Shown here one piece after another: positions 16,001-64,000 of a stretch of DNA of 64,000 nt. The stretch's first letter is position 1; each line of letters starts with the position of its first letter. The DNA comes from Rhizaria sp. SCN 62-66 (Eukaryota): the NCBI GenBank assembly GCA_001724265.1, contig MEDY01000112.1:1-64000 (forward strand), written 5' to 3'. The notes beneath the pieces were generated by a model that did not search any database, had not been told where the DNA came from, and worked only from the letters and a program-made list of their open reading frames with translations. A program made the position numbers and the translations under genes.

Positions 16001-19000
16001 CATACGGCACGCAGCCTGCAATCACGGGCTCCCACTGAGCCACTTCATTGCACGTCAGTTTCTGAGAGCTGCTTGTGGTGCCAGCAACACGCAAGCCGAC
16101 AGAGCAGACACGATATAACACGCGACCAGCAAAGTAATTATACGCAGTGAGCTGATCCTGTGCAAAGCCGCCGCCGTCAAAGTCGCTTGTCTGCAGAGAC
16201 AACCGTAGCGTTGCGTTCTCGCCCGCGATTGGAGCCTGGCACGAACGCACGCACGCGATCACCATATCAATAGGGTCCCAGCCGGCCATGCCCGTGGTGT
16301 TATAAAACGTGTCTAGCATAGCCTCTGCACGCGCTGCAGGGCGGCGGGATGCCTCAGCATCACTAACGGTATTACGCGTGGAGTCGTTAACGTGGCGTGG
16401 AGCGCCACCGAACGCGCGTTGAGCGCGCGGGAGCGAGCTGACAGCGCGCGCGACTGGCTCGGCCTCGTCGACGTTGCTTACCTCGTAACCAGCTTTCGGG
16501 AGCGTGGGACCAGGTGAACCGTTGAGCTTGCAGTTAAAGCGTGAGCGCGCATAGCTCACCTCCATATGATAAATACTTGCCCTGGTGATACGGGACCCGT
16601 TCTCCGTCTTGACCTCGATCGGGGTTAGCATCAACGACACCGCGTCCGAGGGACAATAGACGATCACGCCCGCGTTGATATCGTATAGTGACGGATCCGG
16701 GGACGCGGCTTGCTCGGCCAGCAAGTGCAGCGGCTCGCGCAGAGTCACAATGAGGCTATCATCCATTGTCGCAGAAGGCGTCGGCAACGTCGCGTTGATA
16801 GCAGCAGCGTGAAACACAGCCTCATGAGATTCTTCGACAACAGGTGTCAATTCGGGCAATTCATCGGCCGTGGAAGCACTAAAGCTGGCGATGCGCGCTT
16901 GCTTGCGCGCATCGTATTCCTGGTATGACAGCATTGTGTAATACAGCTCCTTCGGGGGCGAGGGCACGATGGGATACACCAGTGCCGGGCAGCCGACTTG
17001 CGAGCACTCAAGGTCGCTCCCGGAGAGGACCCAGCCGCGACCGTATGTGCAGACGTGCGCAGCAATCTTGTTGTTGTCACCGAGGATTAGTGCACCAGTG
17101 TCGAGGTCTACTGTCGGCTTGGGAACACTACACTTAGTGTGCGCCAGCGCTCCAGGGATGTGGTGGAACCAGACATAAGAGCCGTAGTAGTACCCCGTGG
17201 CAGGGTTCGGCGCCTCATCTTGTCCAGGAGGAAGGTTGAAGGCAGGGCAGATGTATGACTCACAGCGCGTCGGCTCCGCGGTCCACAGTCCCGTGGGTAG
17301 GCACTCGATGATGGAGTTGACAACGTCGGTGAACGAGAAAGGCGCGGGACACGAGAGCGCCAGCACCGTGCCCACCAAGAATCCTGCTCCGTACTAGTCT
17401 CTTACAAAGCCTCCGCGGCGGAACGAAGCCAACGGCAGCGGTTTAGTAGCCGTGGAAGTCTCCCCGGCCAGGGGGTCTGTGCAGTGCACGGGCACACATG
17501 GCGTCAGGGTCGACCAGCCGTCGGCGCGGCACACGATGTCCTGCACGGCCACGTAGCGCGAGGACTCGCACGTCACGTGCGCGCGCGAGCCCTCGAGGGT
17601 GTGGCGCGTCTCGCATGAGGGCGATGAGTAATACACATATGCGACAGGTGACACAATCGGCAACGGTCCACAGTCATAACGAGGCAGACACTCGACGAAG
17701 TCCACGCTCCATGACGTGCCAGCGGTCGAAACAGCCGCCGCAGACACCGCACGCGGACGCGCCGCGGTGACACGTGCTTGAGAGGTGGGGTTGCTATTGC
17801 TCAAACTAGAGAGTTGCTCCGCAGTGTCGAAAACAATCGGCGCGAGCGTGTCGAGCGCGTTGACTACGTCGCTAGCGACACGGTTGCAAGTGATGGGCGT
17901 GGTGACCGAGGGCTTAAAGGCAGACGAGGTACACTTGGGCACGACGAACGAGCCCGGGATGCGGCTGTCCGAGTATGACACAGAGCCGCCGTCGATCGCG
18001 GGGAACTCGACGCATTGCGCCGTCGGCGAGCACTGCAGCGGCAGCGCAGACTCCACCACAGTCACGGTTTTTGTGGCCTGCACGACCATCAGGTCCTCGC
18101 TTTGCTCGCTTGCAGCTGCGTCTTCACCGGCACTCATAGGAGTGACACCGGAGTAATAGGCCGTCCAGCCCATAGCGGTACAGTTGAGCGCGCTCGCAGT
18201 TCCGGCCACAGGGGTGAACCAGGTCCTGCAGCCCAGCGTGGCCAGCGTGCCGAAGGGGTGCGACGTGCGCTGCGCGTCATACGACGACGTAGCGACCATC
18301 TGCGTGCCGACAAACGACACAACCAACGGCAGCGGCGGGCACGCGGTGGTGAAGAGACACAACCCTGCACGAGGTACCGCGCCTAGCAGCTCCAGCGACA
18401 CTTGCGAGACCAACACGGCTTCCCAGGTGCCAGCGCTGCCGCACTCCAGCACCTGCTGCGCAACGGCTAGGGAGTCGACGACTGCTGTTTCCGAGCGGCA
18501 CGCGTACGTCGCGCGCGCGCCGACAGGATAGCCCGGTGCGGGGCGAACCTGGTACACCGCCCCGTCGGTCCCCGCATCGCGCACAGTCACCGTCATGGTC
18601 TGCGGTGCCTGCGGCGGGGGCTGGCAGAATACGCGTTCACAGGCGGGTCTCCGGCCGTACCACAGCCCATCGGCAGCGCACTCGAGCGTGGATGAGTCGG
18701 CGACGTAACCGACCGGACAACTGACCGTGACCTCCGAGCGGAAGCCCGGGTACCCCGAGGCGTGCTTGTATGAGCTCACAGCGGCTGTCACGATGGACGC
18801 GATCGCGCCGTGCAGACGGCAGGGCTCGCCCAAGTCGCATTCGTCGTGCGGTGCGGTGGCGTTCCAGGCCGCGCTCGGCTGGTCTCCGAGCCCGCCGGGC
18901 GGCACGACGACACGGGAGGACAGCACGTCGCCGTTGTCGTCGAGCTCATAGAGCACCTCTGTCACGTGTGGACACTGCACCGGCACGCACAGAGGCACGA

Positions 19001-61237: not shown

Positions 61238-64000
61238 TCACACGTCTGTGTAGAGCGAGCTGGCAAAGGGCAGCCCCCTGCGCACGGCGGCCTCGGCCTG
61301 CTCGAACTTGGCCATCAGCGCCTCGTTGCCAACCGTGCGCGCGGCGTCGACGAGCTGCAGCAACAGCTCCGCGAGGCGCCGCAGCAGGCGCACGATGGAG
61401 CCCGGGTGCGCGTCAGTCATGTTGCACACGTCGACGAACGCGGCGCCGCGCGCCCACGCGAGCACGGGCGCCGCCATGCCGTGCCGGAAGCCAGCCAGGT
61501 AGGCCGGCTTGTCCACGCGTTGCCCACACTCGGTTGACAAATCGGCGACGCGCTCGACGATGGCGCGCAGGCGCGCGACGGGCGGCGCCAGCTCGGCGGG
61601 CAGCGGGTCGCGGTCGCTGCTCGAGCGGTCCGTCTCGAACAGGACCGTGAGCAGCGCCGCCACCTGAGCAGGCTCGTACGCCGCGAACGAGTTGTCGAAC
61701 ACAAGCTCCGTCAGGACCAACTCGTCGACGGCCTCGACGTGCGCGGCGAAGCGACCCAGCACGGTCAGCATCCCGTCGGCCGTGGCGTAGCCCAGGCGCC
61801 GCAGCACGCGCAGGCGCGCCGCGAGCTCGGCCGTGAACACGTCCACCAGCTCGCCACCGCCATCGCTGCTGCTGCTGCTGGCTGAGTCGCCAGATCCCGA
61901 AGCCGGGCCAGTGAGGGCGGCGTGAGCGAGAGGGCTCGACAGCGCGGCCTGCAGCGCCGCCGCGGACCCCGCCGGACCAGAGCTCGGGGCAGTGGAGCTG
62001 GAGCTAGAGGAGCCGGCTGCGAAGCGCGCGCGCTGCTGCGCGGTGATCTGCGTGGTTTGGTTGACGCCGAAGACGCCCGACTGCGCGGCCTCGGTCAGCG
62101 CGGCCGCGCGGCGCAGCGCGTGTGCCAGCGAGCCCGCGGTCGCGGCCGAGACGAGGCCATGCGCGGCCGCCAGCGCGTCCAGCGTGCTCACGGTCACTGC
62201 ACTGCTGCTGCTGCTGCTACTGCTCACGGTCACTGAGGTGGCGGCTGTGGGCGCGGGCAGCTGCACGTCTGTCTCACCGGCATTGGCAGCCGCACCGTCA
62301 TCGGTAGCACGAACGCTCATGTTCATGGGGGACTTCTTGGCGTCGTTCTGCTCTGCGTGTGCCTCGGCAGACTCGACACCCGTGGTCCCACAAGCATCAG
62401 CATCAGCGGCAGCTTGTGCATTAGCATCCGCGCTGTCAGCCTCGCGGAAACGCTTCTCCCTCGACGCAACAGCAGCCACAACACTAGCGGTATCACTAGC
62501 ATCATGCGCACTCGCATTGACACGCGAGTCAACCGCTGTTGCAGTCGCCGGCGTCTTGCTGAGAGCAGGCACGCGCACAGTCGCAAACGGCTCAGCCAGC
62601 CCCTTGCCCTTAGCCCCGCTCCCGCCCTCAGCCCCAGCCCCGGCCAGTGCGCCGACCAGCGCGCCCCCACTCTGCAGCGTCACTCGGCCGTGTCCAGCAA
62701 GCGCGGCGCGGACCTTGCGCGCGAGCGGGACCTCCCTGGCCGCCGCTACAGCCGCGGCCGCGCGCGCGAGGGCCGCGAGGTTGAACCCGCGCGGGTCGAC
62801 GCCCATATCATCGAAGGGCGAGAGCAGCGGCAGGGCGCCGGGCAGCCCCGCGGCGGCGTGCGCGCGGTGCGCCAGCGCCACAGCCTCGAACACAGCGGCC
62901 TGTTCGGCGGCGCCGCGGACGTCCGCGGGCAGCGCCACGCGCACGGCCGAGACCTTGTGCAGCATCGGCAGCGACACGCGGACGACGTCGTAACGCACCG
63001 AGGAGGCCTGCGCCGACTGCGCGCGCGCCTGCAGCTGCGACAGACTCAACCCTGACACCGCCGCATCAGCGTTGGCGATTGCATTAACGGCAGCGCCAGT
63101 GTTTGCAGTGGCGTGGAACGCAGAGGCTGCGAGCCGCTGCAGCCAGCCGGGCTCGACCGGGAGCGGCACTGTCACCGCGGGCGGCGCGGGGCCCGCGTCG
63201 AGCTGCTGACTCGAGGGTGGCGGCGCGACGGTGATCGTACCAGCCACGGGCACAAGCACGTCGACGTCGTAGGTCCAGGGCTCGAAGCGCTTCCAGACGG
63301 TCAGCACCACGGCCCAGCCGAAGTCGCGGCCGGTGTGCGCGAGCAATGTCGCCGCGTCCGCCGCCGACCGCGTGGAAGCCACGTTCGAGCCAGTACCAGC
63401 GCTGTTGCCGCGCACTGCGCGAGCAGACACAGACGATGTTGCATCATGTTGTGTCGAGGGGACGTCGCCAGAGTTGTCAGTATTGCTGCCGTCCTCCTCC
63501 TCATCATCTTCGTCAACGTCGCTGTCACTGAAGCTGTTTGCGGCGGCGCCAGCGGTGGCGGCGCGGCCGGCCTGCGCGCGCCAGAGCTCAGGCGCCGTGG
63601 CCGAGGGCCGCAGCATGCGCCACTTGCCGCCCATCACGGCCGCCACCTCCTCGCGCATGCCGCGCCGCCGCCGGTCCCCGCCGCCGCCATTGGCGCCGCC
63701 GGTCAAGGCTGCGTCCTAGCCGAGCGCGAGACCCAGCCCGATGCTGGCGCTGGCGGCCGAGGCCAGGTCGGCCACCGCGGCGGCCGCGGCGTCGGCGTCG
63801 GCCGACGCGCCCGCAGGCACCGCCGCTGCGGCCGCTGCGGCGGCGGCGACGGCGGCGGCGACGGAGAATGCGCGCGGCGGCGCGGGGGGGCCGAAAGAGT
63901 CTAGCACTGGCTCTAGCCCCCAGCCGTCGCAGCCCGCCCAGCCGGCAGCCTCGGCGCGCGCGCGGCGAGACCGCTGCGCCGCCGACAGGACCGTGCGCGG
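61238..64000 (-). CDS. MTR4: Mtr4-like (Ski2-family) exosome RNA helicase, C-terminal part (arch/KOW + DSHCT); in-frame TAG at 63716-63718; 5' end outside the window
   Basis: DFGWAVVL (KOW); ELAARLRVLRRLGY...GRFAAHVEAVDELVLTELVF; AWARGAAFVDVCNMTDAHPGSIVRLLRRLAELL...GN..L..KF....RRGLPFASSLY. Frame is open to the window edge except for one TAG. Ends TGA. Confidence 0.93.

Follow-up and report, generated by a model that had tools for sequence, protein, structure and literature searches.

Does UAG still end proteins in the organism from which this DNA comes? The stretch analysed here, which we call the window, comprises 64,000 nucleotides of contig MEDY01000112.1 (GenBank assembly GCA_001724265.1, deposited as Rhizaria sp. 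SCN 62-66), and three of its genes are interrupted by single in-frame TAG codons: a giant gene for a protein with Sushi-like repeats, a gene resembling zinc finger protein 830 (ZNF830) and the gene for the exosome RNA helicase Mtr4. The source of the window is an uncultured eukaryote, because the DNA recurs near-complete in bioreactor and wastewater metagenomes from 2015 to 2025 and is partly present in a polyA metatranscriptome of activated sludge.

We conclude, with a probability of about 0.8, that UAG is translated as an amino acid in this organism and behaves as a rare sense codon. A first reading of the DNA made from its letters (the sequence-only reading) had proposed that UAG is decoded at very low frequency, and this is now supported by TAGs that are real and exonic, by 12 genes of which none ends in TAG, by collinear orthologues that are uninterrupted at the TAGs, and by mid-gene stops that relatives carry at places of their own. 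UAG is probably not an effective stop in the source organism and in a small clade around it.

Five in-frame TAG codons in three genes

Reading frames were assigned from GC content by codon position (third-position GC, GC3, 0.74-0.94; second-position GC, GC2, low). The sequence-only reading had placed a TAG at each of the following five minus-strand positions, and all five were confirmed when read from the sequence; the peptide contexts and the continuation in the same frame that it had given match the translations.

26073..26075, minus strand: TAG no. 1, giant gene, codon 109 of the frame and codon 83 from the Met at 26321, context EVAP-TAG-HLDL
22023..22025, minus strand: TAG no. 2, giant gene, codon 1459 of the frame, context NFTC-TAG-HDGV
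17394..17396, minus strand: TAG no. 3, giant gene, codon 3002 of the frame, context FVRD-TAG-YGAG
59993..59995, minus strand: TAG no. 4, codon 43 of the ZNF830-like protein, context AMHR-TAG-KIAA
63716..63718, minus strand: TAG no. 5, codon 1154 of Mtr4, context LALG-TAG-DAAL

Once TAG is read through, TAGs nos. 1-3 share a single frame of 8459 codons (1020..26399, minus strand). Homology runs on in the same frame on both sides of the TAG at all five sites, and at the four sites that can be aligned with uninterrupted orthologues each TAG takes up one alignment column. Codons were counted in 11 stop-to-stop frames (17,468 codons), where TAG occurs five times, or 0.29 per 1000 codons. An earlier claim that these genes hold no internal TGA, TAA or frameshift stands in part: no frameshift was found, the giant gene keeping one frame across 25 kb, whereas the absence of TAA and TGA from the 17,468 codons is built into the way the frames were defined. 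The bases right after the five TAGs are C, C, T, A and G, with no common downstream context. The location of all five on the minus strand is not a significant bias, as about 73% of the counted codons lie on that strand.

The giant gene is intron-less. Its product has a signal peptide, tens of Sushi-like repeats, several hydrophobic or transmembrane segments, a weak match to a hormone-receptor domain, and a low-complexity tail that exceeds 3000 residues and abounds in poly-Q, poly-A and poly-S. TAG no. 1 parts an open reading frame (ORF) of 82 residues that encodes the signal peptide (P0207) from a Sushi ORF of 1346 residues (P0205). In one Sushi-like repeat TAG no. 2 is the codon that immediately follows the third Cys; in another, TAG no. 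3 falls between the first and second Cys. When single repeats were searched against Pfam, a weak Sushi/HRM match was obtained just after TAG no. 3, and none around TAGs nos. 1 and 2.

In the ZNF830-like gene, TAG no. 4 lies two residues past the last His of a C-x2-C-x12-H-x5-H zinc finger. A 42-residue zinc-finger ORF (P0126) ends before it, and the tail beyond it is homologous to P0125 (450 residues), an uninterrupted relative with homology on both sides of the site. A search of the PDB with the ZNF830-like protein returned low-complexity matches only.

TAG no. 5 lies in a low-complexity insert between the helicase core of Mtr4 and its arch/KOW and DSHCT domains. DEAD and Helicase_C precede the TAG (P0003, 1153 residues); the arch beta-barrel and DSHCT follow in the remaining 825 residues, and the ORFs P0002 and P0124 begin past the TAG. 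The C-terminus is the normal end of the family, with an alignment to human MTR4 that extends to query residue 917 of 920 and chain residue 972 of 973. Because Mtr4 is a housekeeping helicase, a true truncation is implausible; the protein is not known to be dispensable. Its best relative is a metagenomic protein at 58% identity, its named matches are plants and one alga (42-54%), and the ESM Atlas returned generic helicase clusters only. At about 1979 residues the protein is roughly twice the usual length, from long Ala/Ser/Gly-rich inserts in the arch region, and the homologue P0004 (1512 residues) has similar inserts.

Each TAG thus splits one functional unit of which both halves are needed. 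Public protein collections hold the pieces: 1153 and 806 residues for Mtr4, 42 for the ZNF830-like protein, and 82, 1346 and 1539 for the giant protein.

Parts of Mtr4 were also compared with other collections. A metagenome scan with the DSHCT region gave, among the matches listed, locus L001 (28% identity), which looked bacterial by composition and ORF layout, possibly a HelY-type helicase, and was dropped. A comparison of P0003 with the genome contig collection gave 11 loci at 37-54% identity in metagenome-assembled genomes (MAGs) labelled as bacteria, none of them the source organism. Three of these (L009, L011 and L012, in Planctomycetales, Chitinophagales and Stappiaceae MAGs) have Mtr4/Ski2-like cores at 52-54% identity, one with a match over 4.5 kb, and may be eukaryotic contigs binned into bacterial MAGs.

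The TAGs in DNA from other samples

To see whether the TAGs recur elsewhere, the contigs of four sequencing runs (X2, X3, X4 and X6) were compared over 8000-26600, which covers TAGs nos. 1-3; the figures for X3 were identical to those for X2, and the two were counted as one data set. No variant is listed at any of the three TAGs in this interval. Contigs of X2 (2016) span the TAGs at 26073, 22023 and 17394 unchanged. Contigs of X4 (2025, a separate study) span those at 22023 and 26073 unchanged, and the listed X4 pieces leave 17271-17405 uncovered. X4 differs from the window at 17 listed places in 18.6 kb, none of them at a TAG, and the X2 contig over 21188-22101 has one mismatch that is not itemised and is not listed at the TAG. 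At 63716, P0003, which comes from another contig, stops exactly before the TAG and differs by 1 residue in a 94-residue overlap; a second member of its cluster sits on a contig of 108,846 bp. The TAGs are not assembly errors, because contigs of other runs carry three of them and the Mtr4 ORF of a second strain stops at the same residue.

Contigs of the DNA runs frequently end or are joined between 24400 and 25620, with a depth of up to 47 compared with about 6 elsewhere, a pattern that fits GC-rich simple repeats (GCG/GCC, poly-Ala) common to other organisms in the metagenomes. Contig joints listed for the DNA runs over 8000-26600 have sides of 20-24 nt in GC repeats and were taken as spurious.

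Position of the TAGs in exons

Four introns were mapped in the window, two in an oxidoreductase gene and two in an NKAP-like gene:

30905-31078, plus strand: oxidoreductase intron, AT-rich
31418-31612, plus strand: oxidoreductase intron, AT-rich
37244-37252: start of an AT-rich NKAP-like intron, GTACGTTAG
37633-37641: start of an AT-rich NKAP-like intron, GTGCGTTAG

The four are 174-214 nt long, have about 30-45% GC and start with GTRCG (GTACG or GTGCG). The 150 nt on either side of each TAG contain no AT-rich segment; the lowest GC in 40 nt there is 0.45-0.70, depending on the site. On both flanks of four TAGs the third codon position has the highest in-frame GC or ties for it; the exception is the downstream flank at 59993, where GC3 is 0.44 over successive GCN Ala/Ser codons. 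The TAGs are exonic, because their flanks are GC-rich and hold no intron-like segment, unlike the AT-rich GTRCG introns of 174-214 nt.

Both NKAP-like introns open with GT[AG]CGTTAGC, which places an in-frame or near-frame TAG right after the splice donor, and one oxidoreductase intron ends in TAG; four introns are too few for a consensus.

The TAGs might instead be removed or changed in the RNA, by very short in-frame introns or by editing such as an A-to-I change of UAG to UGG. Strings of the form GT...AG can be drawn that end at four of the TAGs (12, 18, 12 and 24 nt), and none of the eight listed pieces of the polyA RNA run X6 lies over a TAG. For the fifth TAG, a string begun at the closest GT is 17 nt long and out of frame; splicing out the 18 nt at 22023 would cost the repeat a conserved Cys; and orthologues align with one residue per TAG and no gap. 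The tiny introns were rejected on these grounds. Nothing resembling the mapped introns is near the TAGs, and X6 lists no joint. As for editing to Trp, the residues that relatives have at the TAG columns are E, E, T and S/H, never W. We regard a change at the RNA level as highly improbable.

Relatives of the giant protein and their own stops

Residues 1-3400 of the giant protein, used as query, identified orthologues from two other uncultured species, P0203 (3273 residues, 52% identical) and P0204 (2991 residues, 54% identical), which are 70% identical to each other. Both are collinear with the giant protein and align free of gaps within 40 residues on each side of TAGs nos. 2 and 3. At TAG no. 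1 the alignment is weak and gap-free only within ten residues, with P0203 and P0204 homologous on both sides. In the column of TAG no. 2 both relatives have Glu (VN[FI]TC-E-HDGVS), with 15 of 20 flanking residues identical; in that of TAG no. 3 both have Thr, and in that of TAG no. 1 P0203 and P0204 have Ser and His.

The two relatives are themselves interrupted. Each ORF breaks off partway through a repeat, at a position of its own that the other sequences run past. These mid-gene ends are real stops and not contig ends, because three strain variants of P0203 (contigs of 11.9, 14.7 and 81 kb) agree in length, as do two of P0204 (contigs of 11 and 18.7 kb). Translation into a GTRCG intron would leave its own residues at the C-terminus, and neither P0203 nor P0204 ends in these. 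A Glu in P0203 stands opposite the stop of P0204, and Glu 3394 of the giant protein opposite that of P0203. Three species thus have in-frame stops at different places in the giant gene, about one per 3000 codons, and from the proteins we infer that the stops of the relatives are TAG. The Mtr4 (P0004) and ZNF830-like (P0125) proteins of relatives have no internal stop.

The suggestion, made at first reading, that the reassignment is at an early stage is not supported. The trait is probably older than these species, since it seems to be shared by relatives whose giant proteins are about 52-54% identical.

Terminators and codon usage

If UAG is a sense codon, it should be missing from the ends of genes. 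The terminators of the 12 genes of the window, which lie on both strands and are eukaryotic, are as follows:

1020..26321, minus strand: giant Sushi-repeat gene, about 8430 codons from Met (Pfam Sushi, E 7.9e-39), ends TAA
26875..30270, plus strand: gene recognised by composition, no Pfam match, ends TGA
30725..32575, plus strand: old-yellow-enzyme-type oxidoreductase gene, two AT-rich introns, ends TAA
33054..34679, minus strand: gene recognised by composition, no Pfam match, ends TAA
35391..37951, plus strand: NKAP-like gene, at least two AT-rich introns, start coordinate uncertain, TGA at 37949-51
38311..39480, minus strand: gene recognised by composition, no Pfam match, ends TGA
39551..46456, plus strand: large gene with a GTPase domain (MMR_HSR1), ends TAA
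47102..53017, minus strand: gene with ENTH, RanBP zinc-finger and RhoGEF domains, ends TGA
54319..55302, plus strand: gene with no Pfam match, ends TAA
56290..58059, plus strand: gene recognised by composition, no Pfam match, ends TAA
58646..60121, minus strand: ZNF830-like gene, 491 codons, homologue named 'zinc finger protein 830' by its source, ends TGA
61238..64000, minus strand: 3' part of the Mtr4 gene, which leaves the window, ends TGA

None of the 12 ends in TAG, six end in TAA and six in TGA. If TAG normally made up 20-35% of stops, the probability of finding none would be 0.07-0.006. The sole long ORF that ends in TAG, 54226..55413 on the minus strand, was rejected by its codon-position GC as the antisense shadow of the gene at 54319..55302 on the plus strand.

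TAA is as common as TGA at gene ends despite a ratio of G-ending to A-ending codons of 5-9 to 1 in every pair of purine-ending (NNR) codons (CAG 569 and CAA 118, GAG 657 and GAA 109, AAG 345 and AAA 39, TTG 119 and TTA 20). No codon is rarer than TAG, whose five occurrences compare with 11 of ATA, about twice as many, and 20 of TTA; its usage resembles, in extreme form, that of a rare sense codon in a genome biased towards GC.

The same codon usage bears on the possibility that the TAGs are undecoded premature stops, belonging to pseudogenes, to null alleles in a polyploid or asexual genome, or to errors common to assemblies. Codons one step from TAG (CAG, GAG, AAG, TCG, TTG, TGG, TAC and TAT) total 2664 in these genes and most of those one step from TGA or TAA are rare, so that nonsense changes would mostly give TAG: about 64% of one-step nonsense paths lead to it, and five TAGs out of five have p ~0.11 (with the TGC count assumed). 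The TAG-only pattern is weak by itself, expected about once in nine from codon usage, because most one-step nonsense changes in GC3-rich coding sequence give TAG. Five nonsense changes would imply about 0.4% random substitutions. In decaying sequence indels are expected alongside substitutions at that level, and the absence of indels from the unbroken 25-kb frame is a stronger argument against decay than the TAG-only pattern. The sequence-only reading had argued that decay should yield both TGA and indels; the part on indels holds, and the part on TGA is much weaker than it supposed.

Premature stops also gain from the differences between X4 and the window in the giant gene (n=17), of which seven are synonymous and ten non-synonymous; compared with 26% expected synonymous, this gives p = 0.12 and no clear purifying selection. 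Contigs can, moreover, hide minor alleles. On the other side stand the missing frameshifting indels, the confinement of TAA and TGA to the ends of frames of up to 8459 codons (stop-to-stop by definition), the fact that Mtr4 is not known to be dispensable, the same TAGs in runs of 2016 and 2025 with no alternative allele among the compared contigs, the lack of TAG among the 12 terminators, and the relatives' own mid-gene stops in several strain variants. We consider undecoded premature stops very unlikely.

Which amino acid

To identify the amino acid, we compared the residues that face the in-frame stops in homologous sequences. At TAG no. 4, 90 aligned stretches from 77 matches have E 36, Q 15, D 10 and K 8 times, and the closest ZNF830-like matches, P0125 and P0127, both have E. 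Overall, Glu of the nearest orthologue faces four of the six alignable in-frame stops (two of four in the organism of the window, two of two in the relatives), compared with a Glu background of 3-4%. With the measured Glu retention of 27-30% between these orthologues, the probability of at least four Glu in six is 5.7e-5 at a background of 4.5%, 8.5e-4 for random nonsense, 2.4e-4 if UAG is Gln and 0.07 if it is Glu.

An empirical likelihood over the four alignable sites places Glu first, with a posterior of 0.75 when P0203 is used. Leu, Trp and Tyr are strongly disfavoured, with Trp near the bottom, which argues against UAG = Leu, as in the rhizarian exLh discussed below, and against editing to Trp. 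On these alignments glutamate is our best guess, held with modest confidence; Gln would be possible and less likely than Glu.

A proposed decoding of UAG and its weight

We propose that ribosomes would translate UAG, most likely as glutamate, and that only UAA and UGA would end genes. UAG would be decoded by a transfer RNA (tRNA) with the anticodon CUA, for which the simplest origin would be tRNA-Glu(CUC) through one anticodon change; weakened or lost recognition of UAG by eRF1 may contribute as well or instead. New UAGs would arise by near-neutral changes of GAG to TAG, and UAG would stay rare (the 0.29 per 1000 codons counted above) under strong GC pressure on coding sequence. That a clade of uncultured GC-rich wastewater eukaryotes reads UAG alone as Glu and keeps UAA and UGA as stops is a tentative extension, to which we give somewhat less than an even chance.

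A number of observations weigh against sense decoding of UAG, its reading as Glu or its extension to a clade. The evidence comes from five codons in one 64-kb window. The window contains no tRNA gene or Rfam match, and the eRF1 gene is not in it. Of the 30 bins of the giant gene, 24 have contigs from the polyA RNA run X6, and the eight listed pieces of this run all miss the TAGs. Five of the 12 genes in the terminator count are supported by composition alone, and the Mtr4 stop is the only one checked against the C-termini of homologues. The restriction of the interruptions to TAG is weak by itself, and the differences within the giant gene show no clear purifying selection, as described above. 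The remaining alignable sites face Thr and Ser/His, not Glu, and with P0204 alone the posterior for Glu falls to 0.28, with Gln and Asp nearly tied. Lastly, the claim for the clade draws on one gene.

The rarity of the codon and the empty tRNA search of the window also suit a leaky UAG, a stop in principle that near-cognate tRNAs or a weak eRF1 would let through, with no dedicated tRNA(CUA). Five occurrences in 17,468 codons is a very low frequency, and codes in which a codon is stop or sense by context are known from Condylostoma, Parduczia, karyorelicts and Blastocrithidia (among the sources, PMC5304391 and PMC12153298). Against a leaky stop, three UAGs in one gene of 8459 codons would multiply the inefficiency, the housekeeping Mtr4 would depend on readthrough, the TAGs share no downstream context, and none of the 12 genes uses TAG as terminator. 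In yeast, near-cognate insertion is said to give Gln, Tyr or Lys; the bias towards Glu fits one defined decoder better than such mixed insertion. We judge leaky readthrough unlikely.

Comparison with known genetic codes

Statements on published codes draw on excerpts of the papers cited. UAG-only changes of the nuclear code are known there from only a handful of lineages (PMC5304391; PMC11687900). In the rhizarian exLh (Sainouroidea), nuclear UAG is Leu, with 384 UAGs in 71 genes that end in UAA (56) or UGA (15), and UAG is rarer in highly expressed genes (PMC5304391). The two cases are alike in that UAG is the only stop codon to have become sense, with UAA and UGA as sole terminators (UAA 56 and UGA 15 in the 71 exLh genes, six each in the 12 genes of the window), and in that both were noticed in uncultured material through in-frame UAGs in conserved genes (PMC5304391). 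They differ in frequency, about five UAGs per gene in exLh and five in about 17,500 codons here, and in meaning, Leu being strongly disfavoured here. We see no sign of kinship with exLh; the closest named Mtr4 matches of the window, 52-54% identical, are all plants.

A meaning of glutamate has precedents. An uncultured oligohymenophorean ciliate reads UAG as Glu and UAA as Lys (PMC10553269, described in PMC11687900). As proposed here, UAG is Glu in that ciliate and its meaning is uncoupled from that of UAA; there UGA is the sole stop, whereas UAA ends 6 of 12 genes in the window. The composition of the window is not ciliate-like, at 59-74% GC compared with 27-54% for phyllopharyngeans (PMC11687900). 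In Blastocrithidia spp. both UAR codons are Glu, UGA is Trp and UAA also serves as a stop; reassigned codons are avoided in highly expressed genes, and sister lineages differ in code (PMC12153298). UAG is Glu there, as proposed here, and is read in Blastocrithidia by cognate tRNAs. Unlike the window, whose exons have 65-75% GC and no in-frame TAA or TGA, Blastocrithidia has three affected stops, and its reassignment is linked to a genome rich in AT and transcripts rich in AU, according to the same excerpt.

Other lineages show the same kind of change, UAG alone becoming sense, with another amino acid. UAG is Gln and UAA is kept as a stop in Iotanema spirale, Protocruzia tuzeti and some phyllopharyngean ciliates (PMC11687900; PMC5304391), several phyllopharyngeans have UAG as the only reassigned stop, with the meaning Gln or Leu (PMC11687900), and Scotinosphaera reads it as Ser (PMC11687900; PMC5304391). 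In phyllopharyngeans 78-91% of genes contain UAG (PMC11687900); in the window, no codon is rarer. The excerpts of PMC5304391, PMC11687900 and PMC12153298 describe no nuclear code that combines UAG = Glu with UAA and UGA as stops, and a search for a UAG change in a wastewater eukaryote found nothing relevant within the full-text library searched.

Restorative editing offers another kind of parallel. Some filamentous ascomycetes edit mRNA from A to I, turning UAG into UGG and restoring Trp at ancestral TGG codons. The likeness lies in in-frame TAG, and almost only TAG, in otherwise intact genes. The differences are the residues of relatives (E, E, T and S/H) and the Sushi repeats, RhoGEF domain and composition of the window, which are not suggestive of such a fungus.

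Each new UAG-only case is a test of how a stop codon can acquire another meaning while the proteome stays functional. The present one, if true, would be unusual for its GC-rich coding sequence, for a reassigned codon rarer than any other and not common, and for the likely meaning of that codon, Glu. It would be the opposite of the AT-pressure setting invoked for Blastocrithidia in the excerpt cited above, and would show in a natural system that a reassigned codon can persist at about 0.3 per 1000 codons across species-level divergence. There is a practical consequence for annotation: gene callers that use the standard code cut the genes of the source organism at each TAG, and the same is likely for its relatives.

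Base composition of the window

GC across the window is 59-74%. Exons have 65-75% GC, with GC3 up to 0.94, and introns and intergenic spacers 26-45%; given this sharp contrast, looked at in detail over 30250-32650 and 37100-38350, exon borders can be read straight off a GC plot. A 42-nt exact pattern of the window had no match in the genome or viral contig collections. Antisense ORFs of 395-604 codons lie at 54226-55413 (minus strand), 56266-58080 (minus strand) and 32958-34694 (plus strand) and have no Pfam match. Their first-position GC of 0.84-0.91 is the mirror of the GC3 of the real genes, and they could easily be mis-annotated as genes.

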